64,000 nt of DNA from an uncultured Actinomycetota bacterium. Its GTDB lineage: Bacteria > Actinomycetota > Actinomycetes > JACCUZ01. Shown in pieces: positions 14,182-59,513 of this stretch. Under the pieces are notes generated by a model. The model made no database searches and was not told where the DNA came from. It was given only the letters and a program-made list of their open reading frames with translations. Location of the stretch: contig CAWHJC010000014.1 of the NCBI GenBank assembly GCA_963829565.1, positions 37,601 through 101,600 on the forward strand, written 5' to 3'. The position numbers were made by a program, and so were the translations under genes. The first letter of the stretch is position 1. Every line of letters starts with the position of its first letter.

Positions 14182-14187
14182 GCCGGT

Positions 14188-15033: not shown

Positions 15034-15036
15034 GCG

Positions 15037-15242: not shown

Positions 15243-15262
15243 GTCCGAACAGGTGTTCGGAC
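15243..15262. promoter_or_regulatory. LexA (SOS) box-like palindrome CCGAAC-AGGT-GTTCGG before ruvCAB
   Basis: Matches the actinobacterial CGAAC-N4-GTTCG consensus; follows a TAGTTT -10 candidate (15236-15241); 56 nt before ruvC start. Confidence 0.75.
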
Positions 15263-15318
15263 GGCGCGGACACGATGACCAGCACGAGACCAGCGCGAGA
15301 CCAATAGGAGGTACGACG

Positions 15319-16458: not shown

Positions 16459-17595
16459 CCGGCTCGACGCGCGGCGTGGACCAGCCGGTCGAGCTCGCCG
16501 ACCGGCTGGTGGACCCCGCGGTCGGCGTCGACGGTGTCGAGGACGAGCGGCAGGTCGACGCGGCGCTGCGGCCGCGCAGCCTCGACGAGTTCATCGGGCA
16601 GCACCGGGTGCGCGAGCAGCTGGGACTGGTGCTGGACGCCGCCAAGGGCCGCGGCCGGGTGCCCGACCACGTCCTCCTGAGCGGCTCGCCCGGCCTCGGG
16701 AAGACGACGCTGGCGATGATCGTGGCGGGCGAGCTCGAGGCGCCGATGCGCATCACCAGCGGCCCGGCGATCCAGCACGCCGGCGACCTCGCGGCGATCC
16801 TGTCCAGCCTCACCGAGGGCGAGGTGCTGTTCCTCGACGAGATCCACCGGATGTCGAGGCCGGCGGAGGAGATGCTCTACCTCGCGATGGAGGACTTCCG
16901 GGTCGACGTCATCGTCGGCAAGGGCCCGGGCGCCACCGCGATCGCCCTGGAGGTCCCGCCGTTCACCCTGGTCGCTGCCACGACCCGCGCGGGGCTGCTG
17001 CCGGGGCCGCTGCGCGACCGGTTCGGGTTCACGGCCCACATGGACTTCTACGAGCCCGGCGACCTCGAGCAGGTGCTCACCCGGTCCGCGCGACTGCTCG
17101 GCGTCCGGCTGCACCCCGACGGGGGGACCGAGGTCGCCGGACGCTCGCGCGGCACGCCGCGGATCGCGAACCGGCTGCTGCGCCGGGTCCGCGACTTCGC
17201 CCAGGTGCGGGCCGACGGCGTCGTGACCCGGGAGGTGGCGCGTGCCGCGCTGGTCGTCTACGAGGTGGACGAGCGCGGCCTGGACCGGCTCGACCGCGCG
17301 GTTCTGCAGGCGCTGGTCGGCCACTTCGGCGGGCGGACCGGTGGGGCTGTCGACCCTGGCCGTGGCGGTGGGGGAGGAGCGGGAGACCGTCGAGGAGGTC
17401 GCCGAGCCGTTCCTGGTGCGGGCCGGGCTGCTCGCCCGCACCCCGCGGGGGCGGGTGGCGACCCCCGCCGCCTGGGAGCACCTCGGGATGGCCCCGCCGC
17501 GGCCCCGGACCGTCGGCCCCGCCTCGGAGCCGGACCTGTTCGGCGGCCGACCCGGGCGAGTGCCCGACCCGGCCGGCGCCGCGGCGGAGGGCTGA
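16455..17595 (+). CDS. ruvB: Holliday junction helicase RuvB (frameshift ~17335)
   Basis: [70 protein letters not shown]. Confidence 0.95.
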
Positions 17596-17694
17596 CCGCC
17601 CCGGGAAGGTAGACTCCCGGCCGGTCTCGCCGGGCTCTCCGGCACCGCACTCGCACCGCACCCCGCACCCCATCCGGAAGGACGTCTCGCACTC

Positions 17695-18076
17695 GTGGAC
17701 GCCGCAAGCCTGATCTTCCCTGTCCTCCTCCTGGTGGCGTTCTACTTCCTGATCATCCGCCCGGCGCGGACCCGGCAGCGGGCGGTGCTCCAGCTCCAGG
17801 AGCGCCTGGCACCGGGAGTCGATGTCATGACCACGTCCGGCATCTTCGCGACGGTGCGGGCGGTCGAGGACTCCGCCGTGACGCTCGAGGTGGCACCCGG
17901 CGTCACCATGCGCTTCGCGAAGGCGGCGGTGGGCCAGATCCTGCACGACGCCGACGCGACGACGACAGGGACGACTGCGACCGATGTCGACATCCGACGA
18001 CGACATCGACGAGGGCAGCCGCCGAGACCAGCCATCCGGGGGACGAGAGCCCCCGGACGACCGCCCCACCCGCTAA
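17695..18076 (+). CDS. yajC: Preprotein translocase subunit YajC (tail frameshifted)
   Basis: FYFLIIRP...VMTTSGIFATV...LEVAPGVTMRFAKAAV. Confidence 0.9.
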
Positions 18077-18124
18077 GCGCAGGCACCCGGCGCCCCGCGC
18101 CGGCCGATCGGAGAAGAGCTCCTC

Positions 18125-19921
18125 GTGGCACCACCCGTCCCGTCGCGCCCTGGCCGCACGCTCGCGGCCCTTGCGGTGCTCACGGCACTCGTCTACGGCC
18201 TGATCTGGGTCGCGGCGCCGGACAGCGTCGGGGAGGACGAGCTGTCCGCCGCCGACAAGTACCGCCCCCGCCTCGGGCTCGACCTCGAGGGCGGGACGAG
18301 CGTGATCCTCACGCCGCGGCGGGCGAGCGGCGAGGGCTCGGTGCCGCAGGACTCGCTGAACCAGGCCGTGTCGATCATCCGCAACCGCGTCGACAGCTTC
18401 GGCGTCGCCGAGTCGGAGACCACCACGGCCGGCGACAACATCGTCATCTCGATCCCCGGCAAGCAGGACAAGTCGATCCTCGACACCGTCCAGCAGACGG
18501 CGGAGCTGCGGTTCCGCCAGGTGCTGCTCAGCGGGGCGGGCGTCACGGCACCGGCTCCGTCCGCCAGCCCGTCGCCGACGGCCTCCGGCTCGGCCACGGC
18601 CACGCCGTCGGGGAGCCCGTCCGCCACCCCCTCGCCGAGCACGACGACCGACGGCAGGGCGGTGCCCGGCGCGCTCCGGGCCAACTCGTCGCCCAGCCCC
18701 AGCGCATCCCCTTCCGGCCGCCACGCCGTCCCCGACCGCGTCCGCGACGCCGCCCCCGGTCGCCGCCCGGCACCACTGGCGCAGGTGCGCTCACCCCCGA
18801 GCTGCAGCAGCAGTTCGTGGCACTGGACTGCAGCGACCCGGAGGCGGTGCGCCAGACGCTGCGGGCTCCGGGCGCGGACCGACCGAAGCGGCCGCTCGTC
18901 ACCTGTGACGAGGACGGCGCCGAGAAGTTCGTCCTCGGGCCGGCCGAGGTCCTGGGCACCGACGTGTCCTCGGCCAGCGCCGGCCTCGAGTCCAACTCCC
19001 AGGGCATCCCGACCGGAGGCTGGGAGGTGCAGCTGGACTTCACCGGTGACGGCAAGCGGAAGTTCGCCGACATCACCCGCCGGCTGGCCGCCGAGACGGG
19101 CGACCTCAACCGGTTCGGCATCGTCCTGGACGGCCTGGTCGTCTCCGCCCCGACCACCAACGAGCCGATCACCGGCGGCAAGGCGCGGATCACCGGCAAC
19201 TTCAGCCAGGACGAGGCGGAGAGCCTGGCCAACGTCCTGAAGTACGGCGCCCTGCCGCTGACCTTCGACGCCGGCGAGGTGCAGGAGGTCTCGGCCACCC
19301 TGGGCGGTGACCAGCTGCGGGCCGGGCTGGCCGCAGGCGCCATCGGGCTCTTCCTCGTCGTGCTCTACTCGCTGCTCTACTACCGCGCCCTCGGCCTGGT
19401 CACCGTCGCCAGCCTCGCCGTCGCGGGCATCGTCACGTACGGCATGGTGGTGCTCCTCGGGTGGCAGCTGGGCTTCCGCCTCAGCCTGGCCGGCATCGCC
19501 GGCCTGATCGTCGCGATCGGCATCACCGCGGACTCCTTCGTCGTCTACTTCGAGCGGATCCGCGACGAGGTCCGCGACGGGCGGCACGCTGCGGGTCGCC
19601 GTCGAGTCGGGGTGGGCGCGCGCCCGGCGCACGATCCTGGCCGCCGACTTCGTGTCGTTCCTCGCCGCCGTGGTGCTGTACCTGCTCTCGGTCGGCGGGG
19701 TCCGCGGATTCGCGTTCACGCTCGGCCTGACCACGCTCATCGACATCGCGGTGGTGTTCCTCTTCACCAAGCCGCTCGTGTCGTTGCTGGCCCGCACCAA
19801 GTTCTACGGCGGCGGTCACCGTCTGTCGGGCCTGGCGCCCGACCGGCTCGGCACCACCCGCAGCACCCTGGCCACCCGGCCGTCGCGTCGTCGTGGCGCA
19901 CCGACCCCCAAGGAGGCGTGA
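18125..19921 (+). CDS. secD: Protein translocase subunit SecD (indels)
   Basis: RLGLDLEGGTSV, IIRNRVDSFGVAE, FGIVLDGLVVSAP, LKYGALPL, IGITADSFVVYFERIRDE. Confidence 0.93.
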
Positions 19922-42574: not shown

Positions 42575-43682
42575 ATGACGAACCTGTCGGTGTGGTCCGA
42601 CGAGGAGGTGCAGCCCCCTCGTCGGCGACGCCGGAAGAAGAAGGAGCGCAAGGGGGGCCTGGCGGTCGCCATCGCCCTGCTCCTCGTGGTCGCCGTCCTG
42701 GGCGGCGGCGCAGCCCTGGTGTTCGGGGTCGGCGCCAAGATCAAGGACGCGCTCTCGACCAGCTCGGCCCCGGACTACCCCGGCCCCGGTCAGGGCGAGG
42801 TGCTCATCGAGGTCGAGCCCGGCCAGACGGTCTCCCAGGTCGGCGAGACGCTCAAGCGCGAGGACGTCATCAAGAGCACCCAGGCCTTCTTCGAGGTGGC
42901 CAACGCCAACCCGGAGTCGTCCACCTTGCAGCCCGGCTTCTACTCGCTGCAGCACAAGATGCCCGCCGCCGACGCCTGGACACCCTGCTCGACCCCTCGG
43001 CCAGGGTGCAGGCCAAGGTCACGCTGCCCGAAGGCCTGCGGCTGGACGAGACCCTGGAGAAGCTGGCGACCGGCACCGAGCTCCCGCTGAAGGACTACCG
43101 CCGGCGCTCAAGAACGCCGAGGACCTGGGCCTGCCCGACTACGCGCAGGGCAACCCGGAGGGCTTCCTGTACCCGGCCACCTACGAGGTGCCGCCGGACG
43201 CCGACGCCGCGTCGGTGCTCGAGCAGCTCTTCACGGCGTACGCCGGGGCAGCCGAGGAGGCCGGCATCGAGCGGACGCCGCGCGACCCGGAGGAGCTCGT
43301 CATCATCGCCAGCCTGGTCGAGGCCGAGGCCCGCCACGACGAGGACTTCGGCAAGGTGGCCCGCGTGGTCTACAACCGGCTCGAGGCCGGGATGCCGCTG
43401 CAGTTCGACTCGACGGTCAACTACGCGCTCAAGGCCGACAAGGAGATCGTCACCTACGAGGACCTCGGCGAGGACTCGCCGTACAACACCTACCAGAACA
43501 CCGGCCTGCCGCCGGCCCCGATCAACTCGCCGGGGCTGAAGGCGATGACCGCGGCCGTCAACCCCCCGGACGGCGACTGGCTGTACTTCGTGACGACCGA
43601 CCCCGAGGCCGGGACCACCAAGTTCACCGGCGACTACCAGGAGTTCCTCCGGTTCAAGGACGAGCTCAAGTCCAACCAGTGA
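42575..43682 (+). CDS. mltG: Endolytic transglycosylase MltG (indels)
   Basis: TM anchor; EGFLYPATY, IIASLVEAE, VARVVYNRL, LQFDSTVNY, SPYNTY...GLPPAPINSPG, WLYFVT. Confidence 0.93.
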
Positions 43683-44537: not shown

Positions 44538-44564
44538 CTCAAGGGCTCACCCCGTCGCGCCGAT
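44538..44564 (+). promoter_or_regulatory. sigma28/WhiG-like promoter CTCA-N17-GCCGAT before the roadblock gene
   Basis: CCCGGCTCAAG...GCCGAT; same motif before pilT and the minor pilins. Confidence 0.65.
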
Positions 44565-44623
44565 GGCCTCCTAGAGACGGCGGGCCCTCGGGTCCCGTCG
44601 AAGGCGACACCTGAGGTGGGACG

Positions 44624-45192
44624 ATGAGCGAAGCGTACGGAGACACCAGCACCAGCCGGTCCGCCCGGCTGGACCGCATCCTGACCGAGCTGGTCGGGCA
44701 GGTGCCCGAGATCGAGGCCGCGTCAGTGGTGTCCTTCGACGGGCTCGCGATGGCGTCCGCGCTACCCGCCGCCATGGACGAGGACCGGGTGGCCGCGATG
44801 AGCGCCGCCCTGCTCTCGCTCGGCGAGCGGGCCGCCGAAGGCCTCGGTCGCGGAATGCTGTCCCAGGTCTACGTCGAGGGCGAGAACGGCACCGTCTTCC
44901 TCATCTCGGCCGACGACGAGGCCGTCCTGGTCGCGGTCGCGGCCAAGGGCGCCAAGGTGGGCCTGATGCTCTTCGAGGTACGTCGGGCAGCTGCCGCCGT
45001 CGCCGAGGCCCTGCGGGTCGAGCTCGACTACGGTCAGCGGCCGACGAGCTGCCCGCTCCCGCACCGCTGCAGGTCGTGAGCCCGGCTCCGGCCGCATCGT
45101 CGGACCGGTCGCCCTACGACCCGCCGTTCGAGTCGTCGCACTCCGCGTCCGGGGCGCACGCCGCGCCGGCCGACTCTCCGTCCTGGAGCTGA
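44624..45192 (+). CDS. Roadblock/LC7 (MglB-like) protein; ORF ends 45079 as read, tail probably continues to TGA 45190-45192
   Basis: ASVVSFDGLAMAS, DRVAAMSAALLSLGERAA, QVYVEGENG, KVGLMLFEVRRAA. Confidence 0.88.
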
Positions 45193-45195
45193 CCG

Positions 45196-46505
45196 ATGAA
45201 GCTCGAAGGCTCGCTCGACGCGTTCAGCCTGCCGGACATCTTCCAGCTGCTGAGCTTCACCAAGAAGACCGGCGGCCTGCACCTGGCCAGCGACGGTGCC
45301 GACGGCGTCGTGTTCTTCGCCGCCGGCCAGGTCACCGGCGCGTCCGCCGACAGCTCCCGGCAACCGCTGGCCCGCCGCATCGTCGGCAGCGGCGCCGTGA
45401 CGGACGAGGCCCTGGTCGCTGCCGTGGACGCGGTTGCCCGCGGTGAGGGCGTAGGGGTCGTCAAGGCCCTGCTGGACTCCGACGCGGTCGACGCCGACCT
45501 GCTGCGGCAGGCAGCCCACGACCAGGCCACCGACGCGATCTTCGACCTGCTGCGCTGGCGGGTCGGCGACTTCGCCTTCGTGATGGACGAGGCCAACCCC
45601 GACGACGTCGGAGTGGCCGTCGCCATCGAGGAGGTGCTCGCCGACGCCGAGGCACGCAAGACCACCTGGGAGACCGTGTCGCAGGTGGTGCCCTCCTCCA
45701 AGTCGGTGCTCGCCATGCCGGTCGTCCTGGCCGGCGAGCCGTCGGTCAGCCGTGAGGAGTGGTCGCTGCTGGCGCTGGTCGACGGCCGGCGCAGCGTCTC
45801 CGAGCTGGTGGACCTGACCGGTAGCGGTCAGTACGCCGTGGTGTCGAACGCTGGCGGCCCTGGTGCAGCGCGGCCTCCTCGAGGTCCGCAGCGAGGGTGG
45901 CGACGGTGACGAGCTCGACCACGTCGCCGTGGTCGTCCGTCGCCAGTCGCTGCTGGCGCCGCTCGAGCAGTTCACCCCGGTGGTCGCCCCGGCGCAGTCG
46001 GTGCCCGACGTACCCGCCGCTGCGGCGCCTGCGGCCACCCCCGTCTCGGCCCCCGCGGACAACGGATGCGGGAAAGTGACCGGCGTCAGGTGGCCCAGGA
46101 CGCATCCGATGTCGCGGAGAGCGGCGACGAGGGCAGCGACAGTGCCGGCGCGGACCCCGAGCTGGTGACGGCCTCGGCCGCGCCCGACCAGCCGTCCATG
46201 CTGGGTGGCGCCCACGTGCCGCAGGACGTCGTTCCTCCCCGGCCGGAGCCGTTCCTGCCGAAGCGGCAGGCCGACTTCGACGAGTCCTCCACTGTCGTGG
46301 CATCGCCGCGCCGTGGAGCTCGCCGGCCATGCGACCGGTCAGCGTCGGCGGCAACAGCGGAGGCGGGGGAGGTGGTGGTCTCGGCGACGTCGTCGGTGCG
46401 ACCGCCACGGCGCCCGACCCGGATGCCGCGTCGGTGATCGAGCGGGACCCGAACGTCAACCGCAGCCTGATGCTGCGGCTCATCGCCGGTGTGAGGGGAC
46501 TCTAG
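45196..46505 (+). CDS. DUF4388 domain protein with winged-helix-like segment and low-complexity linker (indels)
   Basis: LEGSLDAFSLPDIFQLL...KTGGL; LLRWRVGDFAF; WSLLALVDGRRSVSELV; ends RSLMLRLIAGVRGL*. Confidence 0.8.
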
Positions 46506-47081
46506 ATGGCCACGCCGCGCACGCGCCGCCGAGGAGGGCAGGCGGTCAAGGTCGTCGTGACCGGGCCGTTCTCCGCCGGCAAGACGACGCTCATCCGGAC
46601 CATCAGCGAGATCACCGTGCTCTCCACCGAGCGCGGGATCACCGACTCGACCCGCAAGCGCAAGGCCGAGACCACGGTGGCGATGGACTTCGGTCGCATC
46701 ACCATCGACCGCGACCTGGTGCTCTACCTGTTCGGCACCCCGGGGCAGGACCGCTTCGACTTCATGTGGGAGATCCTCGGCGAGGGGATGATCGGCTACC
46801 TGCTGCTCGTCGACGTCTCGCGCGAGGAGTCCGTGCAGGAGGCGGCGAGCATCCTCGAGGCGTTCCGGCGGATGGCGCGGGTCCCCTTCGTGGTGGGCCT
46901 CAACCGTGCCTCGGCCGACGACAACCTGCTCGTCGAGAGCGTCCGCGCCCGGCTCGACATCCCCTCGGACGTCGCGATCCTGCCGTGCGACGCCACGGAC
47001 AAGGAATCGGTCAAGAACGTCCTGCTGGCGCTGCTCTACGCGGTCCTCGACGAGGTCGAGACCGAGGCCGTCCGGGCCTGA
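46506..47081 (+). CDS. MglA/CvnD-like small GTPase
   Basis: P-loop GPFSAGKTT, TTVAMDFG, LFGTPGQDRFDFMW, degenerate G4 GLNR. Confidence 0.88.
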   Translation: MATPRTRRRGGQAVKVVVTGPFSAGKTTLIRTISEITVLSTERGITDSTRKRKAETTVAMDFGRITIDRDLVLYLFGTPGQDRFDFMWEILGEGMIGYLLLVDVSREESVQEAASILEAFRRMARVPFVVGLNRASADDNLLVESVRARLDIPSDVAILPCDATDKESVKNVLLALLYAVLDEVETEAVRA

Positions 47082-47082
47082 G

Positions 47083-47352
47083 ATGGCCACGGCCGGTCGA
47101 AGCCTGTACGCGCTCGCCGGACGGGTGGGTCGGCGCCGCCGCCCCGACCCGCCGGTCGTCGTGACGGTGGTGCTCGACTCGGGGGAGCAGGTCACCGTCC
47201 CGCCGCGACTCACCGCTGGCCCGGGCCATGGGACAGGTCGCCGGCTTGCTGGCGCACTGGTGAGCCCGCAGCGGCCGCTGGTGACTACAGGAACGGGACC
47301 CGCCGCCCGATGGTCACTGAGGACATCGGCTCAGGGAGAGGACGTGGCGTGA
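47083..47352 (+). CDS. Hypothetical 89-aa ORF between GTPase and pilB
   Basis: ATG 1 nt after GTPase stop; stop overlaps pilB GTG (GTGA); no recognisable motif. Confidence 0.35.
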   Translation: MATAGRSLYALAGRVGRRRRPDPPVVVTVVLDSGEQVTVPPRLTAGPGHGTGRRLAGALVSPQRPLVTTGTGPAARWSLRTSAQGEDVA

Positions 47353-49014
47353 AGCAGCTGGGCGACATCCTGCTGGAAGGCGGGCTGGTCAACCCGACCC
47401 AGCTCGAGCTCGCCTACGCCGAGCAGGAGCGGGTCGGACGAGCCCTCGGTCGGGTCCTGATCGAGCAGGGCGTCCTGACCGAGTCCCAGCTGGTCTCGGC
47501 GCTGGCGACCCAGATCGGCCTGCGCTTCGTCGACCTCTCGGACTTCCCGGTGGACGGCTCCGCCATCGGCCGGATCCCGGGTCCCGTGTGCCGCCGGCAC
47601 GCGGCGATGCCGATCGGCTTCGAGGACGGCAAGCTGCTGGTCGCCATGGCCGACCCGGCCAACGTGTTCGCGATCGACGACATCCGCTCGCTGACCGGCA
47701 TGGACGTCAAGCCGGTGGTCGCCACCCGCGGCGACGTCGCCGCTGCCATCGACCGCTACTACCGCGCCGACTCCGACCTCGACGACATCTCCGCCGTCCT
47801 GGACGCCCAGGAGGAGGAGGACGAGCTCTCCAAGGTCAAGGAGATCGTCGAGGACGCGCCGATCGTCAAGTACGTCAACCTGCTCATCACGCAGGCGATC
47901 CAGGACCGCGCGTCGGACATCCACCTCGAGCCGACGGAGACCGACCTACGGGTCCGCTTCCGCATCGACGGCGTCCTGCACGAGGTGATGCGCTCGCCCA
48001 AGGCGATCCAGTCGGGCGTCATCAGCCGGCTGAAGATCATGGCGGACATCAACATCGCCGAGCGCCGGATCCCCCAGGACGGTCGCCTCTCCGTCAACGC
48101 CCACGGCCGCAAGATCGACCTCCGGGTCGCCACGCTGCCGACGGTGTGGGGCGAGAAGGTCGTCATGCGAATCCTGGACAACTCCACGGCGCGCCTCGAC
48201 CTGACCGACCTCGGCTTCTCCGAGGACAACTACGAGCGCTACTCGCGCAGCTTCACCAAGCCCTACGGGATGATCCTGGTCACCGGGCCGACCGGCTCCG
48301 GCAAGTCCACGACCCTCTACGCCACGCTGAACATCGTCAGCCGGCCAGAGGTGAACGTGATCACCGTCGAGGACCCGGTGGAGTACCGGCTGCCCGGCAT
48401 CAACCAGGTGCAGACCAACAACAAGGCCGGCCTGACCTTCGCCTCGGCGCTGCGCTCGATCCTGCGCTCGGACCCGGACATCGTGCTCATCGGTGAGATC
48501 CGGGACCACGAGACCGGACAGATCGCCGTCGAGGCAGCCCTCACCGGTCACCTCGTGCTGTCGACCCTGCACACCAACGACGCCCCCTCGGCGGTCACCC
48601 GGCTGACCGAGATGGGCATCGAACCGTTCCTGGTGGGGTCGGCGCTGGACGCCGTTCTCGCCCAGCGCCTCGCCCGCCGGCTGTGCGTCAAGTGCAAGGA
48701 GGCGTACACGCCGACCCGGGAGTCCCTGGTGGCGTCGCGGTTCCCGTGGTCGGACGACAAGCCGCTGCCGGAGCTGTTCCGGCCGATCGGCTGCTCGGCG
48801 TGCGCCAAGACCGGCTACAAGGGCCGCCTGGCCCTGCACGAGGTGATGATCGTCAGCGAGGAGGTCGAGCGGCTCGCGGTCGAGCGCGCCTCGGCCACGG
48901 TCATCTCGCAGGTCGCGCGGGAACGAGGGCATGCGGACGCTGCGGGACGACGGGCTGGACAAGGTCCTCGCGGGCGTCACATCGATGGACGAGATCCTCC
49001 GGGTCGTCGTCTAA
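47349..49014 (+). CDS. pilB: Type IV pilus assembly ATPase PilB (late frameshift)
   Basis: MshEN-like QLGDILLEGGLV...LGRVLIEQG; ASDIHLEP, AERRIPQDG, GPTGSGKSTT, EDPVEY, RSDPDIVLIGEIRD, STLHTND; Cys pairs CVKC and CSAC. Confidence 0.93.
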
Positions 49015-49039
49015 AGGCTTGGCAAGGTCGCCCTCCCGG

Positions 49040-49066
49040 CTCAAGCCAGGGGCCGACCCGGCCGAT
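49040..49066 (+). promoter_or_regulatory. sigma28/WhiG-like promoter CTCA-N17-GCCGAT before pilT
   Basis: CCCGGCTCAAG...GCCGAT, 61 nt upstream of GTG 49128. Confidence 0.65.
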
Positions 49067-49127
49067 CCTTCGCGAGAACAGGTGCGCCCGCCGTCCGCGG
49101 GCCACCGGAGCTGAGAGGGGTCAGCAC

Positions 49128-50727
49128 GTGGAGACGTCCGGATACCAGCCGGTCCCGAGTGAGCCGGGGGGCTTCACCTCGATGCCCGTCCCCGTGCCCG
49201 AGGAAGAGGCACCGGCCGGCGAGGGGTGGACCTACTCCTCCTCGGCCGACGCGCGCGCCCGAGGCCGAGGCGCCGCTGGACGGCACCGTCTCCTTCGCCG
49301 AGCCGCCCGCTGCTTTCGCCGAGCCCGTCCCTTCGCCGAGCCGGTCTCCTTCGCCGAGCCGGTTGCGTACGCCGAGGCCGCTGCGTTCGCCGAGCCGGTT
49401 CCGCCGGCCGAGCCGGCGGCCGACCCGCTCGGGCGCCGGGTACGCCCTGGAGCAGTCGAACGTCCCGGTGCAGGCACCCCCGCCCTACGCGCTGCCCGAG
49501 CAGGCCGCCCCGGCGGCGAGCTCGCATCGCCCCTCGTCGCGGCCTTCGCGGGCGAGGTCGTGACCCTTCGAGGCGGGCGAGTCCTCCGTGCTGATCGCCG
49601 AGTCGGAGGCCGAGGAGTCGGCCTACCAGCGCGGCTCCACCGAGGCGGAGGGTGACGAGAACGACATCACCCTCAACGACCTGCTGATGCACGTGCTCGA
49701 CACCGGCGCCTCCGACCTGCACCTCACGTCGGGCGCCCGGCCCGCGATCCGCCTGAACGGCGAGCTGAAGCAGCTCGAGGACCAGCCGATCCTCACCCCG
49801 CCCGTGATCCAGCGGGTGATGTACGCGGCCCTGACCCAGAAGCAGCGGGAGAAGTTCGAGGAGAACCTCGAGCTCGACTTCGCCTACAGCGTGCCCGGCC
49901 GAGCCCGGTTCCGCGTCAACATCTACCGCCAGCGCGACGCGCTCGGTGCGGCCTTCCGCATCATCCCGTTCGAGATCCGCAAGCTCGAGGACCTGGGCGT
50001 CCCGCCGTCGGTGGCGAACTTCGCCTCGCTCCCGCGCGGCTTCGTCCTCGTCACCGGCCCGACCGGCTCGGGCAAGTCCACGACGCTGGCCTCGCTGATC
50101 GACCTCGCGAACCGGACCCGCAGCGAGCACATCATGACCGTCGAGGACCCGATCGAGTTCCTCCACCGGCACCAGAAGTGCATCGTGAACCAGCGCGAGG
50201 TGGGGGAGGACACCTGGTCCTTCCAGAACGCGCTCAAGCACGTGCTCCGCCAGGACCCCGACATCATCCTGGTCGGCGAGATGCGCGACCTCGAGACGAT
50301 CTCGGTCGCCCTGACCGCCGCCGAGACCGGTCACCTCGTCTTCGCCACCCTGCACACCCAGGACGCGGCCCAGACGATCGACCGCATCATCGACGTCTTC
50401 CCGACCAACCAGCAGCAGCAGGTCCGCGTCCAGCTGGCCGGCTCGCTGCAGGGTGTGGTCTGCCAGACCCTGGCCAAGACCCGCGACGGGCGCGGCCGAG
50501 CGGTGGCCACCGAGGTGCTGGTCGCCACGCCGGCGATCCGCAACCTGATCCGCGAGGGCAAGACGCACCAGATCTACTCGGCGATGCAGGCCGGGGCCAA
50601 GCACGGCATGCACACGATGGACCAGCACCTCGCGGACCTGGTCATGAAGGGCAAGATCACCTACGAGGTCGGCCTCGAGAAGTGCCACCACGTCGAGGAC
50701 TTCAACCGGCTCTCCGGCCGAGGCTGA
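49128..50727 (+). CDS. pilT: Type IV pilus retraction ATPase PilT with ~170-aa disordered N-terminal extension (indels in extension)
   Basis: GASDLHLTSG, RFRVNIYRQR, GPTGSGKSTTLA, EDPIEF, LRQDPDIILVGEMRD, AETGHLVFATLHT, AIRNLIRE. Confidence 0.95.
49288..49415 (+). repeat. About seven imperfect 18-bp coding tandem repeats (VSFAEP-like hexapeptides)
   Basis: GTCTCCTTCGCCGAGCCG and variants in tandem. Confidence 0.75.
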
Positions 50728-50738
50728 GAGGCATTCCG

Positions 50739-51970
50739 ATGGCAGCGACGCTGACTTTCCAGTACTCGGTGCGCGACCGCACCGGCAAGATCGTCTCCGG
50801 GACGCTCGAGGCGGAGTCCCAGACCGCCGTGGCCTCCAAGCTGAAGCAGATGGGCTACGCGCCCGTCAGCATCACCAAGTCCAAGGCCGGGATGAAGACG
50901 GACATCAACATCCCGGGCTTCGGCAAGAAGAAGGTGAAGCTCAAGGACCTGGCGGTCATGTCGCGACAGTTCGCGACGATGATCAACTCCGGCCTGTCGA
51001 TGCTTCGCTCGCTGACCATCCTGGCGGAGCAGACCGACAACAAGGAGCTCGCCCGGGTCCTTGGGCGAGGTGGGCAAGGACGTGGAGACCGGCGGCGCGC
51101 TGTCGGCGTCGCTGGCCAAGCACCCGAACGTCTTCCCGCCGTTGTTCGTCAACATGTGCCGGGCCGGCGAGGTCGGGGGCTTCCTGGACTCCGTGCTCCT
51201 CCAGATCGCGGCGAACTACGAGGCCGAGGTCAAGCTGCGCGGCAAGGTCAAGTCCGCGATGACCTACCCGGTCGTCGTGCTCGTGATGGCCATCCTCGCC
51301 GTGATCGGCATGCTGCTGTTCATCGTCCCGACGTTCGCCGCGATGTTCGACACCCTCGGCGGTGAGCTGCCGGCTCCCACCAAGATCCTCGTGTGCGATG
51401 TCCAACCTGCTCAAGGTGGGCGCGCCGTTCCTGCTCGTCGGTGCTGATCGCCGCGTTCGTCACGTGGGGCAAGGTGAAGCACAAGCCGCAGGTCCGCAAC
51501 GTCGTCGACCCGCTCAAGCTCAAGATCCCGGTCTTCGGCAAGCTGTTCCAGAAGATCGCCCTGAGCCGGTTCGCCCGCAACCTCGGCACCATGATGCACT
51601 CCGGCGTGCCGATCCTGCAGAGCCTCGAGATCGTCGTCGGACACCACCGGCAACGTCGTCCTGGCACGGGCGATCCGCGACGTCCAGGACAGCGTCCGGA
51701 GCGGTGAGTCGTTGGCCGCCCCGCTGGCCAACCACCCGGTCTTCCCGCCCGATGGTGGTGCAGATGATGTCCGTCGGTGAGGACACCGGCGCGCTGGACA
51801 CCATGCTGCACAAGATCTCCGAGTTCTACGACCAGGAGGTCGAGGCGACGACCGAGTCGCTGACCGCGCTGATCGAGCCGCTGATGATCGCCTTCCTCGG
51901 CGGCATCGTCGGGTCCATGATCATCGCGCTCTACATGCCGATCTTCAAGATCTTCGACCTGATCGAGTAG
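50739..51970 (+). CDS. pilC: Type IV pilus platform protein PilC (indels)
   Basis: RQFATMINSGL, HPNVFPPLF, AGEVGGFL, KVKSAMTYP, GEDTGALDTML, LIEPLMI, ALYMPIF. Confidence 0.93.
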
Positions 51971-51983
51971 CCGACCCCAGCTC

Positions 51984-52022
51984 GCCGGAGGGCCGGACCC
52001 TGACAGGGTCCGGCCCTCCGGC
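51984..52022 (+). terminator. 19-bp perfect hairpin after pilC
   Basis: GCCGGAGGGCCGGACCCTG-A-CAGGGTCCGGCCCTCCGGC. Confidence 0.75.
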
Positions 52023-52072
52023 TGTTCGACCTAGCCCCTTCGGGTGGCCGGCAGAAATTTCCCGGTCAGCCG

Positions 52073-52103
52073 CTCAAGGCGGAGCGTCGCTCCGCACCGA
52101 AAA
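52073..52103 (+). promoter_or_regulatory. Possible sigma28-like promoter CTCA-N19-ACCGAAAA before the riboswitch/pilin
   Basis: GCTCAAG...ACCGAAAA; spacer 2 nt longer than the best copies and itself palindromic. Confidence 0.4.
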
Positions 52104-52124
52104 CCACCTTGTCAACGAGCCACA

Positions 52125-52217
52125 CCGGCCAGAAACGGCACACCCGTCGAAAGACGGGGTCGCAAAGCCAGGGAACCGCGTGACAGAGATCGCGGTCAGC
52201 CCAGCTGCCTCGGCCGG
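52125..52217 (+). ncRNA. c-di-GMP-I (GEMM) riboswitch in the major pilin leader
   Basis: GGCACACCCGTC-GAAA-GACGGGGTCGCAAAGCC aligns gap-free to the Vc2 P2 core as I recall it (G20=52137, GAAA loop 52149-52152, A47=52164); P3 ends CAGCCCAGCTGCC; P1 CCGGCC/GGCCGG. Confidence 0.88.
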
Positions 52218-52289
52218 CACCCCGTCAGGGTGCCGCGAGGGACCGGCGGCGTGGCTCACGGGAACGGTCCTGAAAGGACGGAGCATCAC

Positions 52290-52705
52290 ATGCTCGCTCG
52301 CATCCGCAAGTCGGCGGAGGAGAAGGACCAGGGCTTCACCCTGATCGAGCTCCTCGTCGTCATCATCATCATCGGCATCCTCGCCGCCATCGCCATCCCG
52401 GTCTTCCTGAACCAGCGGCAGAAGGGCTACAAGGCCGACATGAAGTCGGCGCCTGAAGAACATGCGCCACGGCCGTGGAGTCCTGCGCCACCGAGATCAA
52501 CGGCGACTACACCGGCACTGCACGCTGGCGGACCTGGAGGCCGACGAGGGCTTCAACTACTCGCCCGACCTCAGCCCGGTCGTCGTCCGTCGAGGCGACC
52601 GGACCGGCTACTGCCTCGAGCACCACGGACGACCCGCCTCGCCGGCAGCGACGTTCTACTACTCAGCGACCGACGGCGTTCCGTCGGAGAACCGCCTGCG
52701 TCTGA
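52290..52705 (+). CDS. pilA: Type IVa major pilin (indels in globular domain)
   Basis: Class III signal KDQG|FTLIELLVVIIIIGILAAIAIP; Cys residues in the head; downstream hairpin. Confidence 0.88.
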
Positions 52706-52721
52706 TCCACCGTCTCACCGG

Positions 52722-52752
52722 AGGGGCGGTCCCTGCTAACGGGCCGCCCCTT
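52722..52752 (+). terminator. Hairpin after major pilin
   Basis: AGGGGCGG-T-CCC...GGG-CCGCCCCTT. Confidence 0.6.
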
Positions 52753-52821
52753 CGGCGTATCAATTCACGGTCGCTTTACCCTGGCATGACGTTCAAGGCG
52801 AAAGCGAAAGGGGGTGAGCAC

Positions 52822-53229
52822 ATGCGAAGGAACGAACACGAACAGGCCGGCTTCACCCTGATCGAGCTGCTCGTCGTCATCATCATCATCGGCATCCTGG
52901 CGGCAATCGCGATCCCGGTGTTCCTCAACCAGCGGGAGAAGGGCTGGCGGTGCCCAAGCCGTAGCGACATGCGGAACGCCGCTACCGCAGTGGAGTCCTA
53001 CGCAGCCGACAGCGCCGGCTCCTACGCCGGCGTGAACGGCGCCAATCAGAGCTCGCCGGAGCTGCTCACCGAGGGCTTCCGTCCCGGCTCGCTGGTGTCG
53101 GTGGAGGTCGTCAGCACGTCCTCGGATTACTGCGTCCGAGGGTTCCACGACCAGCTCGACGACGAGTTCGTGTTCCGGAGCACCGACGGGGTCGTGAAGA
53201 GCGGCAACCCGGGCTTTATCCCTTGTTGA
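52822..53229 (+). CDS. Second type IV pilin paralogue
   Basis: EQAG|FTLIELLVVIIIIGILAAIAIPVFLNQR; intact ORF with purine-rich RBS region. Confidence 0.88.
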   Translation: MRRNEHEQAGFTLIELLVVIIIIGILAAIAIPVFLNQREKGWRCPSRSDMRNAATAVESYAADSAGSYAGVNGANQSSPELLTEGFRPGSLVSVEVVSTSSDYCVRGFHDQLDDEFVFRSTDGVVKSGNPGFIPC

Positions 53230-53231
53230 CC

Positions 53232-53276
53232 ATCGGCGTCGCGCGGAGGCTCAACCGGCCTCCGCGCGATGCCGAT
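53232..53276 (+). promoter_or_regulatory. 19-bp hairpin containing a CTCA-N17-GCCGAT promoter motif (53250-53276)
   Basis: ATCGGCGTCGCGCGGAGGC-TCAACCG-GCCTCCGCGCGATGCCGAT. Confidence 0.6.
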
Positions 53277-53309
53277 AGTCGAACCCGCGGCCAACCCAAG
53301 GAGGAGCAC

Positions 53310-53790
53310 GTGAGGCGTCCACGACGCGGCGACGACAGCGGCTTCACGCTGCTCGAGGCGATCAGCGTGTGCCTCCTGCTCGGCATCCTCGTCGGCATGG
53401 CAGTCGGGCCGTGGCAGTCCTACCGGCATGCCCGGGCCCATCGCGAGGCGCGCGACGAGGTCGTCGCCACGCTGCGTAACGCGCAGATCGCCTCCGTGGC
53501 CGAGAACATCACGTACCGGGTGGACATCTCGGGCACGACCGCAATCAGCTACCGGGTGCCCGTCGCCGGCACCGCGGTCGTGAAGCGCCGCTACGTCATC
53601 GAAGACCCGAAGATCGCCTTCGATCGGTCCCCAGTTCACGACTCCATCGGGTGGCACGTCGGCCTCCGTCTACTTCTACCCGCGAGGCTCGGCCGGAAAG
53701 GGCGACGTCGACGTCGTCCGCGACGGCGACACCAAGATCTACACCGTCTCAGTGGAAGGACTGACAGCTCGTGTCGCTTTCACGGACTGG
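53310..53790 (+). CDS. FimT/GspH-like minor pilin (indels, end approximate)
   Basis: DDSG|FTLLEAISVCLLLGIL; LRNAQIASVAEN; VYFYPRGSA in later frame. Confidence 0.75.
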
Positions 53791-53797
53791 TCGCCTC

Positions 53798-55494
53798 ATG
53801 GCGGCGCTGCGCGGACCGTCCGCAGACCGCGGCTTCAGCATGATCGAGATCCTCGTCGCAATCTCTTTGCTGGGCCTGCTCAGCGCGGCCATCGTGCCGT
53901 TGCTGATCACCGGGCTGCGCGCCTCGGTCGTCGCCAAGCTGGACACCGGCGCCAAGAACCTGTCGCAGCAGCGCTTCGAGCTGATGCGCAACCTGCCGTT
54001 CCGCATCGCGTACGACCCGGCCGTCACCACGGGTGTCGACATGCTGGACACGTACTTCCCGAACGTGGCGGCCCCGAGCGGCGGCGTGAACACCTCGGGG
54101 TACGTCACCACGCAGGCGCGGCGCACCGGCGAGCCGTCAGCGGGCCGTTCTACCGCAGGGTGTTCACGCAGAGCCTGGGCTCGACGGACTACACGCAGTA
54201 CGTCGCGACGCAGTTCCTCACCCCCGACGTGACACCCAAGCAGGCAGTGACCCCTCCCGACGGGCTACAGCACGACGACGACAGGAGCTGACCGGGCACC
54301 GTCCACGCTGGTCGGCGTCACGGTGATCACGGAGTGGGTCTACGGGACGCAGTCGAAGCGAATGACTGTGTACAGCGAGATCAGCGATGTCGCCCCCGGT
54401 GCACCACTCGTGACGCTGCAGGCACGTTCCTCGGCGCTGCGCGTGACAAGCACGGTCGGCGTCGATGTCGACCAGACCGACCTGCTGGTCGAGTCCGGCT
54501 CGATCAGCATCGACGGTGGGCTCTCCAGCGGCGCTCAGGCGGCATCGTCCGCCGCCGGCACTTTCGCATCGTCGACGCCCGGCACGCGGGTCGACGGCGC
54601 CACGCGCACGGCCGCCGCCCCACCGGACGTGGCCGCGCTCTCGCAGACCGACAACAGTCCTCACCAGCTCTACTGGAACGGGGACCTCGTGGCGGAGCTC
54701 CCGAGGTCGCTGGTGGACGGTGTCATGGTCAAGACCTCCTACGGCGACCCCAACGCCGGGACGAGCACCACGCCGGTGCGGGCCCAGAGCTACGGCGTCA
54801 CCGACATGAAGTTCACCAACAGGCCCAACCTTCACGTGGCGGACCCGGCCCTCGGCCTGGGCTCGGCTACGTGGTGCGGCAGCCGGCGGACGGCTCGACC
54901 CTGCAGTCGAGGGCGCGGGCCTACGCCGCCTCCGTCGGCGGAACGGCTCATTCATCGTCGGTGTGGTCGGACGCCTACGTCTCGGACGTCCAAGTGCTGC
55001 AGACCGACTTCGCCCGACGAGGGCTCATGCAGATGCGGCTCAACTCTGCGGCGATGACCTGCGCGTCGAACGGGACGGCGGCGAGCAGCGCCCCCGCATA
55101 CAGCGCGCAGATCCGGTTCCTGACGTACTCCTACACCTGCTGCGACGCCGAGCCTGGGAACGTACTCGTGGTCGGCCTGGACGACCATGAACGAGGCGCA
55201 GACCTCGGACCCGCTCGCGACTGTCAACCTCACGCCCGGGCCTGGCGGCGTCGCGGTCGGCTACAACGGCGGCCGGGTCGTCTACCTGGGGGAGTACGTC
55301 CAGGGGCTGGCCAGCCAGACCGCGGCGACCCTGTCGGCCAACACGGGTCATGGTCCATCGACGCGAACCGGGTTGAGGCCAGGTCGACCTCGATGGTCAG
55401 CGTCAGCACCGTCCCGTTGCGCGACGGCGAGCCGCTGTCCGCGGTCAACGTCTCGCTCGGCAACCTCTCCTGCATCGCCGAGGACAACCGATGA
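53798..55494 (+). CDS. Large (~560 aa) PilV-like minor pilin with beta-rich C-terminal region (multiple indels)
   Basis: ADRG|FSMIEILVAISLLGLL; QQRFELMRNLPF; ends LGNLSCIAEDNR* overlapping next ATG. Confidence 0.7.
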
Positions 55495-56202
55495 CCGGCC
55501 GCTGGCGCCAGATCCGCCGGGACGACCGCGGGCTGACGCTCGGTCGAGCTGCTCGTGTCGGTCGATCCTCGTCAGGATCATCGGCAGCGTGGTCTTCGCC
55601 AGCGGTCCTCGTCCACGCAGCGGGCGACCGAGACCAGCCGGCTGGTGAACGACCTCAATGGCGAGGCGCGGCTGGTGCTCAACCGGATGTCCCGGGAGCT
55701 GCGCGAGGCACAGCGGATCACCGCGGTGATCAACCCGGCGGGTCCCGGATACAGCGCGACTGCCGACTCGAGCATCACCTTCGAGGTGGACTTCAACGGC
55801 AACGGGACGATCGAGCCGAACGCCGCGGACCCGGAGGAGCTGACGTACTTCTACGACGTCAGCGCGCGGCAGCTGCAGCTGCAGGCGGCCGGCTCGGCGC
55901 TGCCCGTCCTCGCGGCGAACGTCGCCGGCTTCAAGATGAACTTCACGTCTCGGCGGTACGTCTACGACGGCACCACCACCGCCTCCGGCGGGGTGTGCGG
56001 AACGGTGACCGGGACGAAGGACGGTGTACGTCGACTGGCAAGAGGTCGACGGTCACTCATGGATGCTCTACGGCAACTGCAACGCGACCCTGGACGTCGA
56101 GCTGAACGTCATCGACTCGGTCTCCATCGACCTCAAGGTGCTCTTCGGCCCAGGCAGCAGCAGTACCAGACCCAGGTCGACCTTCGGAACGCGAAGCCAT
56201 GA
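55491..56202 (+). CDS. PilW-like minor pilin (indels)
   Basis: DDRG|LTL(V)ELLVS across an indel; EARLVLNRMSRELREA; ends TQVDLRNAKP*. Confidence 0.75.
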
Positions 56203-57523
56203 GCAGGGAGCTGCTAGCGATGACGTTCATGAGCGTCTCCGCGGCATTCGCGACGGGGACCGGGTGCCGCCATGATGACGGTGCCTGATGGCCGGGGCCG
56301 TCCTGACCGCCTCGGCTCTGGTCGATGGTCAACCTGTCCCTCACGAACCTGCGCAACGCCGGGCGCGACCGGGTGGCTGGTGGAGCCATGGGCGCGGCCG
56401 AGGCCGGGCTGTCCGAAGGCCGTCAACTACCTGCAGACGCACTCTGCCGGGGCCCTCAACTGCTCACCCTCCTGTTGATCGAACCCATGGGGCAACAGCT
56501 CCAGCGCCGATCCAGCTGACCTACCCCGACGGCGGGACCGCGCCGGTGTGGATCCAGGTGGTGCAGGCCTTCAACCCACCCGCGAACAAGGTGGCGACGT
56601 ACAAGATCCACGCGGTCGGGCGCACTGGCAACGGGCCGGGGCAGCGCGTGCTCGAGCAGACGGTGACCGGGCAGCCGCTTGAGCATCCCGATCGGCGTCT
56701 ACGCGACGAACATCACGATGAACGGCACGCCGCAGACCTTCAAGGAGTGGGTGTTCAGCAAGAACTGCATCGGCGGTCGCGAGAAGATGGACTTCGGCAC
56801 CGAGCCGGACGCCTACTTCGGCATCACGCCGGCCGCGCACTCGACGCAGTGGATCTACGAGAACAACGGGTCGTGCTCGTCGACGAACACCAGGAACATC
56901 CACAAGACCGTGGCGTGCAACACGCGCCTACCCGAACGACCAGGACGCCCAGGGTGGCGCCGTGTCGTCGCCCTGCTGGCCGGCGAACGGGACGTCAAGC
57001 TTCACGCAGGCCGACCTCGACACGCTACGGCAGCGGCCTGAACGACGACGAGCTGGCGTACCTCCGGTCGCAGGCGCAGGCGCAGGGGCAACTACTGGAC
57101 GAGCGGTGCCGCCTGGACGCCGCCGAACGCCGCGGTCCAGCCGCACGCCGTGATCTTCTTCGACCTGCCGGCGAGCGGCCCCGGCGCCACGGTGACCATC
57201 CAGAACGAGCTGGACAGCTACACCTGGAACGGTGAGTGCACCAGCACGCCCAAGACCGTCATCATCGTGATCAACAACGCGACCACGGGCAACGGCGGGG
57301 TGACGCTGAACAGCGGCAACGACCTGTCCGGTGCGCTCTTCGTCCAGAAGGGGACGCTGAAGTTCAACGGCACGGCGCACCTGGACCGGCACCATCTGGG
57401 CGGACACGATCGAGCAGTGGAACGGCAGCGCCACGTCGCAGCTCACCTCGTGCTTCCTGCAGAACCTGCCCGGCGGACTTCATGTCGGTCAAGTCGACAC
57501 GCTTCCGCGAGGTCGACCGCTAG
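56199..57523 (+). CDS. PilX-like minor pilin with large C-terminal domain (multiple indels)
   Basis: Reconstructed DRG|AAMMTVLMAGAV (no Glu5); AMGAAEAGLSEG; KIHAVGRTG; GALFVQKGTLKFNG. Confidence 0.7.
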
Positions 57524-57551
57524 GAGTCTCTGGCTCGCCTAGGGTCGACCG

Positions 57552-58340
57552 GTGATCCTCCTGGCGCTTCGCCTGCGCTCTGCTCGGCCTGCTCGTCGGG
57601 TCGTTCCTCAACGTCGTCATCTGGCGGGTGCCCGCGAGGCGAGTCGGTGGTCAGCCCGCCGTCGCACTGCCCAGGCTGCGACGCGGCCGGTGCGGCCGCG
57701 GGACAACGTCCCGGTCGTCAGCTGGCTGCTGCTGCGGGGCCGGTGCCGCGACTGCGGCGAGCCCATCAGCGCCCGGTACCCGCTCGGTCGAGCTCGGCGA
57801 CGGCGGTGGTCTTCGCGGCCCTCGCCGTGCGGCTCGGCGTTCGACGCGGCGCTGCCCGCATTCCTCTACCTGGGCGCCATCGGGGTTGCTCTGGCGCTCA
57901 TCGACATCGACACCAAGCGGCTGCCCGACGTCGATCGTCCTCCCGTCGTACGTCGTGGCTGCCGTCCTCCTCGGCCTCGCTGCGGTCGTCGCCGGTGACG
58001 ACGAGGACGCTGCTACGGGCCGTGATGGGCATGGCGGGCCTCTACGCCTTCTACTTCGCCCTCGCCTTCGTCTACCCAGCCGGCATGGGCTTCGGTGACG
58101 TCAAGCTGGCCGGCGTGCTCGGCCTCTATCTGGGCTGGCTGGGCTGGGCCGAGGTCGTCGCAGGAGGGTTCCTCGGGTTCCTCTTCGGCGGTGTCGTGGG
58201 CGGCGTGCTGATGGCGGTCCGCCGGGCAGGGCGCAAGTCGAAGATCCCCTTCGGGCCGTTCATGCTCGCCGGCGCTTTCGTCGCGATCCTCTGGGGCGGT
58301 GCTTTGGCAGACCTTTACCTCGATCACGTCCTCGACCTGA
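57552..58340 (+). CDS. pilD: Prepilin peptidase / N-methyltransferase (A24), frameshifted
   Basis: [55 protein letters not shown]. Confidence 0.9.
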
Positions 58341-58348
58341 TCCGAACG

Positions 58349-58377
58349 CTCAAGCCGACCGGCCCAGATCGGCCGAT
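58349..58377 (+). promoter_or_regulatory. Possible sigma28-like promoter CTCA-N19-GCCGAT before pilM
   Basis: GCTCAAG...GCCGAT in pilD-pilM gap; longer spacer. Confidence 0.45.
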
Positions 58378-58446
58378 CCCCCTTCTTGACATGGCCCCCA
58401 TCGGGGCCACCACGCGGCTCCGGCCGCACGTGGGAGGGGAAGCGTC

Positions 58447-59513
58447 GTGGCAGGTCGATCCGCCATCGGTCTCGACATCGGGACCTCGGGCGTACGCGCC
58501 GCCGAGCTGTCGTTCGGCAAGGGTCAGGTCACCTTGGAGAAGTTCGGCCAGGTGGCCTTCCCGAGGGTGCCGTGCGGGACGGGGAGGTCGTCGACCCCGA
58601 CGCCGTCGCCGCCGCCATCAAGCAGCTCTGGGCACACACGAAGTTCAGCAGCAAGAAGGTCGTCATCGGCGTCGCGAACCAGAAGGTCATCGTGCGCCAG
58701 GTCGACCTGCCCTGGATGGCGGCTGACGAGCTGAAGAAGTCGCTGGCCTTCCAGGTCCAGGACTTCGTGCCGATGCCGGTCGAGCAGGCAGTGCTCGACT
58801 TCCACCCGCTCGAGGAGCTGACCGCCGACGGCGGCAACCGCATCCTGCGCGGCCTGCTCGTCGCCGCCTCCCGCGAGATGGTGCACGCGAGCCTCGACGC
58901 GGTGCAGAAGGCCGGCCTCTCCGCCGGCGATGGTCGACCTCACCTCGTTCGCCGTGATCCGTTCGCTCGCCGACGCCGACCACCTCGGCATCGGGCGCGC
59001 AGGTCGAGGCGCTCGTCGACGTCGGCGCCCGGGTCACCAACATCGTCGTCCACCAGGGCGGCGTGCCGCGCTTCGTGCGCATCCTGCTGATGGGCGGCCA
59101 GGACGTCACCGATGCCGTCGCCGAGCGGATGGGCGTCCCGCAGGAGCAGGCCGAAGCGATCAAGCAGCAGCTCGGGCTCGGCGCTCGCGGGCGACGGCAT
59201 GGACATCCAGGCCGCCAGCCGAGTCGTCGAGGCCGTCGGCGCCGCCTTCGTCGACGAGGTCCGCGGCTCGCTCGACTACTACCTCGCGTCCAGCGGGTCG
59301 GCCCCGATCAGCCGGCTCGTCCTCACCGGCGGCGGAGCACGGCTCGGCGGCCTCGCGCAGCGGCTGCAGGTCACCACCCGCGTCCCGGTCGAGGTCGGCA
59401 CCCCCATGCACAGCCTGCAGGTCGGACGCACCGGCCTCTCCCCGGAGCAGATCGCATTCGTCGAGCCGCTGGCCGCCGTGCCGGTCGGCCTGGCCCTCGG
59501 AGCGGCATCATGA
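58447..59513 (+). CDS. pilM: Type IV pilus alignment protein PilM (indels)
   Basis: IGLDIGTSGVRAAEL, IVRQVDLP, VDVGARVTN, EVRGSLDYY, LVLTGGGA, AVPVGLALG. Confidence 0.93.

Follow-up and report, generated by a model that had tools for sequence, protein, structure and literature searches.

Candidate WhiG-dependent promoters at the heads of the type IV pilus transcription units of an uncultured actinobacterium

Five bipartite sites in a pil cluster

The type IV pilus (pil) cluster considered here lies in a 64-kb stretch of the genome of an uncultured actinobacterium (assembly GCA_963829565.1); this whole stretch, hereafter the window, is G000:C14:37601-101600 in our numbering of genomes and contigs. 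The genome is 3.94 Mb with 72% G+C, in 29 contigs and with a completeness score of 64%. Gene calls from a codon log-odds caller with Pfam annotation, refined against a cleaner orthologous locus with 97% PilT identity (L009), place the cluster downstream of alaS-ruvX-mltG-aroE and divide it into five units: Roadblock, DUF4388 (417 aa in L009), small GTPase, and PilB; PilT (524 aa in L009, with a Pro/Ala-rich N-terminal extension) and PilC; PilA, in one or two copies (pilA1-pilA2 in the window); the minor pilins and PilD; and PilM-PilN-PilO. An initial annotation of this DNA described five copies of a motif ascribed to a sigma28/WhiG-like sigma factor, and all five are present on the + strand. 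The N17 and N19 of that annotation, counted from CTCA, correspond to N15 and N17 counted from CTCAAG, as they are here.

44538-44564, + strand: P1, CTCAAG-N15-GCCGAT, 59 nt 5′ of the Roadblock start at 44624; heads Roadblock-DUF4388-GTPase-pilB
49040-49066, + strand: P2, CTCAAG-N15-GCCGAT, 61 nt 5′ of the pilT GTG at 49128; heads pilT-pilC
52073-52101, + strand: P3, CTCAAG-N17-ACCGAA, 188 nt 5′ of the pilA start at 52290
53250-53276, + strand: P4, CTCAAC-N15-GCCGAT, 33 nt 5′ of the minor-pilin GTG at 53310; heads the minor pilins and pilD
58349-58377, + strand: P5, CTCAAG-N17-GCCGAT, 69 nt 5′ of the pilM GTG at 58447 and 9 nt 3′ of the pilD stop

As the initial annotation had proposed, every site is intergenic and in the sense orientation; each lies less than 200 bp from a start codon (33-188 nt). 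P2 seems to be intragenic because a spurious open reading frame (ORF; 47310-49655) crosses the gap; the true pilB stop is at 49014, and pilT starts at GTG 49128, where the window reads VETSGYQPVP and the L009 PilT METSGYQPVP. There is no separate motif upstream of pilB in the window (47081-47349), and a relaxed scan of the minus strand gave zero matches across all 64 kb.

We consider it probable (roughly 0.85) that the five sites are WhiG-dependent promoters, in which CTCAAG would be the -35 element and (G)CCGAT/A the -10 element. All five putative -35 boxes read CTCAA(G/C), and thus contain both CTCA and TCAA, the latter a match to T(A/C)AA. The -10 box is GCCGAT at four sites, and the pilA version, ACCGAA, has one mismatch outside CGA, which the published search permits. 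The consensus reported for WhiG2 sigma factors is T(A/C)AA-N16-GCCGA(TAA), and that for the Actinoplanes WhiG1/FliA sigma factors is CTCA-N16-17-GCCGA(ACT) (PMC12871210); CTCAAG-N15-GCCGAT satisfies both, and the Actinoplanes consensus to which the initial annotation compared the motif was the right one. The published spacing (N16, or N16-17 from CTCA) fits the sites at 44538, 49040, and 53250, while those at 52073 and 58349 are 2 nt longer.

Conservation in related loci and recurrence in the genome

A PilT-anchored search yielded 80 related loci (1.18 Mb). Their sources are uncultured Actinomycetes that carry the labels Sporichthyaceae, Frankiales, Motilibacteraceae, Acidothermaceae, and Mycobacteriales, together with Cellulomonas and its allies. 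In these loci the pil sense strand has 136 copies of CTCAAG-N15-NCCGA[T/A] and the antisense strand none, and other spacers are rare, with 11, 5, and 4 matches at spacers of 14, 16, and 17, respectively. Among 150 distinct related sites both boxes are fixed, 70% have a T directly after CCGA, and there is essentially no information in the spacer or in the flank upstream; fixed boxes around an uninformative spacer are a promoter signature. The initial annotation also pointed to CCCGGCTCAAG, common to the first two sites. It is present, but it is probably a coincidence, because positions upstream of CTCAAG carry no information in the 150 sites. We likewise rejected the shared CCCGG 5′ of these two sites as an UP-like element, positions -4 to -1 being uninformative in the same set.

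The distribution of sites follows the operon map. Counted with protein anchors, a site lies 5′ of the operon-first genes Roadblock in 23/23 cases (all with spacer 15), pilM in 39/39 (36 with spacer 15), pilA in 42/51, and pilT in 36 of 69 (Cellulomonas included), and also 5′ of pilB in 22 of 61. Operon-internal genes have almost none (pilC, 1/72; pilD, 2/38; GTPase, 0/24). In L009 each gap between operons holds one site, with none elsewhere, and relatives also carry sites at the position equivalent to P4. Sequence conservation of the pilA and pilM leaders starts just 3′ of the -10 box. The occurrence of the site upstream of Roadblock in all 23 relatives bears out the earlier proposal that the motif ties the GTPase module to the pilus genes. 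We also observe that the pilA -10 (52096-52101 in the window) is systematically (A/G)CCGAA, compared with GCCGAT at the other pil promoters, a difference that is kept across genera and that may tune promoter strength.

How far the motif exceeds chance depends on how it is written. The loose pattern CTCA-N17-19-RCCGA is no commoner than chance in the window, with seven matches found and 5.99 expected, a number matched by 40 of 100 shuffles. The refined form, CTCAAG-N15-(G)CCGAT, is both enriched and conserved. Across the genome, CTCAA...GCCGAT has 11 matches (eight intergenic) at N17 from CTCA and none at the same-codon-phase spacings N14 and N20; with one mismatch allowed, CTCAAG/GCCGAT has 25 intergenic matches at spacer 15 against 7 to 12 at same-phase spacers, an excess that suggests about 20 true sites in the genome.

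The genome scan found further good sites, several of them before genes for turnover of c-di-GMP (cyclic dimeric guanosine monophosphate), with four such loci in this genome (the first four below).

C19:578546: PAS-GGDEF protein gene, site upstream
C25:94043, - strand: GGDEF-EAL membrane protein gene, site upstream
C26:49288 and C26:50409: FIST-like ORF, then a GAF-GGDEF-EAL protein gene, site upstream
C17:462891, - strand: GAF-PAS protein gene, then an EAL ORF, site upstream
G000:C17:434314-436337: Cvn/conservon-type sensor histidine kinase, frameshifted, with an exact CTCAAG-N15-GCCGAT upstream
C17:15110: second DUF4388/PATAN gene, with site CTCAAC-N15-TGCCGATGC at G000:C17:14992-15018 (+ strand; L089 2493-2519)
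Small membrane protein gene, site upstream

The second DUF4388/PATAN gene is always 1-1.7 kb from rsiG (about 1 kb in this genome), and its site is present in 30/30 of the family genomes examined, at exact spacing and 68-107 nt 5′ of the start, making it the best-conserved member of the regulon that we have seen. The site before the Cvn-type kinase may link WhiG to another signalling set of the Roadblock/GTPase type.

The initial annotation treated N17 and N19 as alternative spacings of one motif. The exact N17 was found at 44538, 49040, and 53250, but the N19 sites are two orthologous promoters with two extra spacer bases in the window, and we rejected N19 as a second motif class: N19 from CTCA shows no enrichment genome-wide (six matches, against seven at N13), and both sites are orthologous to canonically spaced promoters. 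Exact spacer-17 matches number four in the genome, and only the pilM site is plausible as a promoter. With pilA leaders located in relatives by BLAST anchoring, the closest relatives have a pilA spacer of 15 (L094-L097 and L099) or 16 (L092 and L093), compared with 17 in the window, and the gap separating the -10 from the conserved leader does not change among them. For pilM the spacer is 14 in G022, 15 in G014 and G009, 16 in G007, and 17 in the window; G022 is 97% complete, so some of the spacer drift is real. G018, the closest genome by RsiG identity and a many-contig assembly, gave no match to the pilA leader or the pilM region. We think that the pilA and pilM promoters of this genome are probably weaker than the family norm.

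The assembly itself bears on these spacings, because several of the cluster's reading frames are split:

44624..45079, + strand: Roadblock/LC7 protein gene (PF03259, 64.6 bits)
45196..46505, + strand: DUF4388 (PATAN-type) gene, frames split in this assembly (PF14332, 80.1 bits; L009 gene 5711-6964)
46506..47081, + strand: small GTPase gene, ATP_bind_1/Ras-like (PF03029, 67.2 bits; PF00071, 31 bits)
47349..49014, + strand: pilB, extension ATPase with an MshEN domain (PF00437, 451.9 bits; PF05157, 89.3 bits; L009 PilB, 554 aa)
49128..50727, + strand: pilT, retraction ATPase, frameshifted between 49128 and 49655 (PF00437, 169.5 bits; L009 PilT as above)
50739..51970, + strand: pilC, platform protein, in three frames here (PF00482 in two ORFs; L009 PilC, 407 aa)
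52290..53229, + strand: major pilins pilA1 (52290-52739) and pilA2 (52822-53229) (PF07963; prepilin leaders ...DQG/FTLIE and ...QAG/FTLIE)
53310..58340, + strand: minor-pilin genes and the prepilin peptidase gene pilD, its stop set by alignment (PF07963, PF01478; L009 genes 14177-18938)
58447..59090, + strand: pilM, frameshifted here, then pilN and pilO (PF11104, 61.4 bits; L009 PilM-N-O)

In addition to the DUF4388 gene, pilT, pilC, pilA1, and pilM, the housekeeping gene mltG (YceG; 42575-43682) is in two pieces. Split frames that include a housekeeping gene, together with 64% completeness in only 29 contigs, point to assembly indels rather than pseudogenes. Apart from its frameshift, PilT of this family is extended at its N terminus by some 145 aa of Pro/Ala-rich, low-complexity sequence that matches nothing in Pfam (window 49128-49590; L009 9566-10000), which is unusual among PilT retraction ATPases.

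A WhiG/RsiG pair and possible layered c-di-GMP control

The genome encodes a single protein above the sigma28-family cut-off, at G000:C3:42344-43021, with a TIGR02479 score of 281.7 bits (cut-off 189.6). It is WhiG-like, aligning with Streptomyces venezuelae WhiG (6PFJ_A) at 406.8 bits over 256 residues compared with 174.9 bits for the best FliA, and it is near-identical to S. venezuelae WhiG in the sigma2 and sigma4.2 regions. An RsiG is present as well, a 193-aa ORF at G000:C17:13474-14049 (- strand) with two E(X)3S(X)2R(X)3Q(X)3D motifs, which matches S. venezuelae RsiG (6PFJ_T) over its full length (residues 19-191, E 9.7e-41) and Rubrobacter RsiG at E ~1e-8. Family-wide, RsiG is found in 38/39 genomes and WhiG above the cut-off in 33/39. 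The sigma28/WhiG-like assignment of the initial annotation thus holds in that such a sigma is present, although it is probably not of the flagellar FliA kind: no FlhA was found in the genome (completeness score 64%), an RsiG is encoded, and the best hit is a WhiG, so that the sigma is taken as probably of the RsiG-partnered WhiG2 kind. Separately, a 293-aa ORF near G000:C17 ~295034 (- strand) contains a single E(X)3S(X)2R(X)3Q(X)3D motif (…LLEEELRASYWRRLLQARRDLL…) and may be a second, single-motif RsiG-like protein.

Several other explanations of the sites were weighed. That they recur by chance in a 72% G+C genome has the unremarkable count of the loose pattern in its favour, but the enrichment is specific to spacing, strand, and position and is accompanied by conservation across genera, so that chance is already refuted and deserves next to no weight. 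The motif could instead be no promoter at all but an operator to which a regulator binds (a response regulator, for example), since a pair of short conserved boxes with constant separation might represent two half-sites, and some of the spacers are palindromic. We regard this as very improbable: the halves are unrelated in sequence and do not repeat each other in direct or inverted form, the sites keep strictly to one orientation with respect to the gene (136 versus 0), the sites are always 33-190 nt 5′ of a start codon, leader conservation starts just 3′ of the second box, and no other promoter is detectable in these gaps. Recognition by a different alternative sigma factor, of the extracytoplasmic function (ECF) or SigB-like kind and with a consensus resembling that of sigma28, is somewhat easier to entertain, given that the genome has other sigma-70-family genes with partial TIGR02479 matches, yet it too is improbable. 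The motif fits the WhiG consensus at both elements and in spacing, the only protein above the sigma28 cut-off has DNA-reading regions near-identical to those of S. venezuelae WhiG, and the targets (pili and c-di-GMP turnover genes) mirror the Rubrobacter WhiG regulon, which was validated by transcription start sites (TSSs).

It is also conceivable, if unlikely, that the pil cluster and two of its promoters are decaying in this genome, the frameshifts and +2 spacers being real lesions and the regulon a relic. The out-of-frame pilT, pilC, pilA1, pilM, and DUF4388 genes would fit, as would the location of both odd spacers inside the pil cluster; however, the frameshift in housekeeping mltG/yceG and the low completeness despite few contigs favour assembly indels, and a 97%-complete relative also has spacers of 14 and 16. 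Some points count against assigning all five sites to WhiG. Two of the five have a spacer 2 nt beyond the consensus and may be poor or inactive promoters here; the many frameshifts in the assembly mean that exact spacer lengths, and those of other short features, could be off; and the WhiG2 assignment rests on best-hit similarity, RsiG, and an absence of FlhA in a genome that is 64% complete.

With WhiG-dependent promoters as the preferred explanation, we propose that the genome's single sigma28-family sigma directs RNA polymerase to all five sites, one per pil transcription unit (Roadblock-DUF4388-GTPase-pilB, pilT-pilC, pilA1-pilA2, minor pilins-pilD, and pilM-N-O). By analogy with Streptomyces and Rubrobacter, from which we infer both RsiG-WhiG binding and the direction of control, the twin-motif RsiG would bind a c-di-GMP dimer when c-di-GMP is high and sequester WhiG, turning the five units off together, and when c-di-GMP is low, free WhiG would allow the pilus machine to be made. 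WhiG would also drive the rsiG-linked DUF4388 gene and several diguanylate cyclase and phosphodiesterase (DGC/PDE) genes, and in doing so would feed back on its own signal.

The pilA leader would add a second c-di-GMP sensor, in the form of a riboswitch. This and the hairpins flanking the pilA unit are as follows:

52129..52213, + strand: aptamer of a c-di-GMP-I-GGC riboswitch, located in the leader of pilA 3′ of P3 and 5′ of the start codon (RF03167, 55.1 bits, E 1e-10)
51984..52022, + strand: 18-bp perfect hairpin 3′ of pilC, without a T-tract (-44.7 kcal/mol, z = -8.65)
53236..53272, + strand: 16-bp perfect hairpin directly 3′ of the pilA2 stop, without a T-tract (-33.6 kcal/mol, z = -7.08)

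The riboswitch score falls under the RF03167 gathering score of 59, and the unit of promoter, riboswitch, and pilin is shared throughout the family, several relatives having it as a tandem duplicate (L009, for instance, at 12497 and 13281). We consider it possible, and put it forward tentatively, that the type IV pilus is under layered c-di-GMP control, with WhiG/RsiG promoters on every pil operon, the pilA riboswitch (sometimes in tandem with its pilin), the MshEN domain of PilB, and feedback through WhiG-driven DGC/PDE genes, and that a PATAN/DUF4388 signalling set, rather than the pilus, forms the regulon's conserved core, this set comprising the rsiG-linked gene (30/30) and the one in the Roadblock-GTPase module heading the pilB operon. 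If so, the set would point to sigma control of an MglAB-like device for polarity or activation.

Terminators and other promoters were sought across the same region. No T-tract terminators were found on the + strand of the scanned cluster, and the 15-kb pil cluster contains no sigma70-type consensus promoter. The hairpin 3′ of pilC, about 50 nt 5′ of the pilA promoter, is likely a factor-independent terminator of the actinobacterial type, marking the operon boundary. The hairpin 3′ of pilA2 holds the P4 -35 in its loop and the P4 spacer as its 3′ arm, such that terminator and promoter would overlap compactly; L009 has no hairpin at the equivalent site. In the pilM leader (58378-58446, + strand) a CTTGACA box, set at a constant distance 3′ of the -10, precedes two hairpins and then a Shine-Dalgarno sequence (GGGAGGGG), and relatives retain all of these; the box could be the -35 of a second promoter or part of a structured leader.

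Relation to known WhiG and FliA regulons

WhiG- or FliA-directed transcription of pilus genes is already established in Rubrobacter and Actinoplanes, and the initial annotation was correct in pointing to WhiG-controlled pili in Rubrobacter. In the TSS-validated WhiG regulon of Rubrobacter, three promoters lie within the pil cluster and another five precede DGC/PDE genes (PMC8325347). The present genome resembles Rubrobacter radiotolerans (Schumacher et al. 2021, PMC8325347) in having sigma28-type sites within the type IV pilus cluster (at three units in Rubrobacter and five in the present genome) and before DGC/PDE genes, in encoding RsiG, and in being apparently non-flagellate. It differs in that the Rubrobacter RsiG is a single-motif homodimer and the one here is of the twin-motif, Streptomyces-like monomer type; the -35 was searched as TAAA there and is TCAA within CTCAAG here; and TSS data are available there, the promoters described here being predicted from sequence. 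A second precedent is the sigma-FliA-dependent zoospore pil cluster of Actinoplanes missouriensis (Kimura et al. 2019, as cited in PMC8325347 and PMC12871210). According to these citing papers, CTCA-N16-17-GCCGA heads pil transcription units there too, although the sigma factors are flagellum-linked WhiG1/FliA proteins without RsiG, unlike the RsiG-encoding genome studied here, with its lack of a detected flagellar export gene.

Compared with S. venezuelae, where the structure of RsiG-(c-di-GMP)2-WhiG is available (PDB 6PFJ), the sigma and anti-sigma are alike, including the two c-di-GMP motifs of a full-length RsiG, but the regulon there consists of sporulation genes (whiH and whiI) and not pili. 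A preprint (Denis et al. 2026, PMC12871210) uses the same search logic, arrives at the same two classes of target, and predicts WhiG-controlled type IV pili in Cellulomonadaceae, Cryptosporangiaceae, Sanguibacteraceae, Rubrobacteraceae, and Jonesiaceae and WhiG-controlled DGC/PDE genes in eight families; the Cellulomonas loci in our set carry the orthologous site upstream of pilT. A text search of the preprint finds no naming of the uncultured Sporichthyaceae/Frankiales-like family, and the per-operon occupancy with internal-gene controls given here is absent from it. In PMC8325347 and PMC12871210, as read or searched by term, there is no mention of a pilA riboswitch or of the Roadblock/DUF4388/GTPase module.

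What is new here is the full per-operon occupancy, the Roadblock/DUF4388/GTPase unit as a conserved member of the putative regulon, the perfectly conserved promoter of the rsiG-linked DUF4388 gene, and a riboswitch stacked on a probable WhiG promoter, by which a sigma/anti-sigma sensor and an RNA sensor of the same ligand would act on one gene, pilA. The comparative evidence is unusually clean, with a promoter for each operon and internal genes as negative controls, and orthologous promoters whose spacers vary naturally from 14 to 17 nt offer a ready set for studying how spacing tunes sigma28-type promoters. The extension of the arrangement to a new family of uncultured soil actinobacteria, Sporichthyaceae/Frankiales-like, is well supported by the sequence comparisons. 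It would mean that the c-di-GMP switch built of WhiG and RsiG, whose output is pili and c-di-GMP enzymes, also operates in a lineage abundant in soil and represented by metagenome-assembled genomes, and it supports the view that control of pili, not of sporulation, is a widespread output of this switch.

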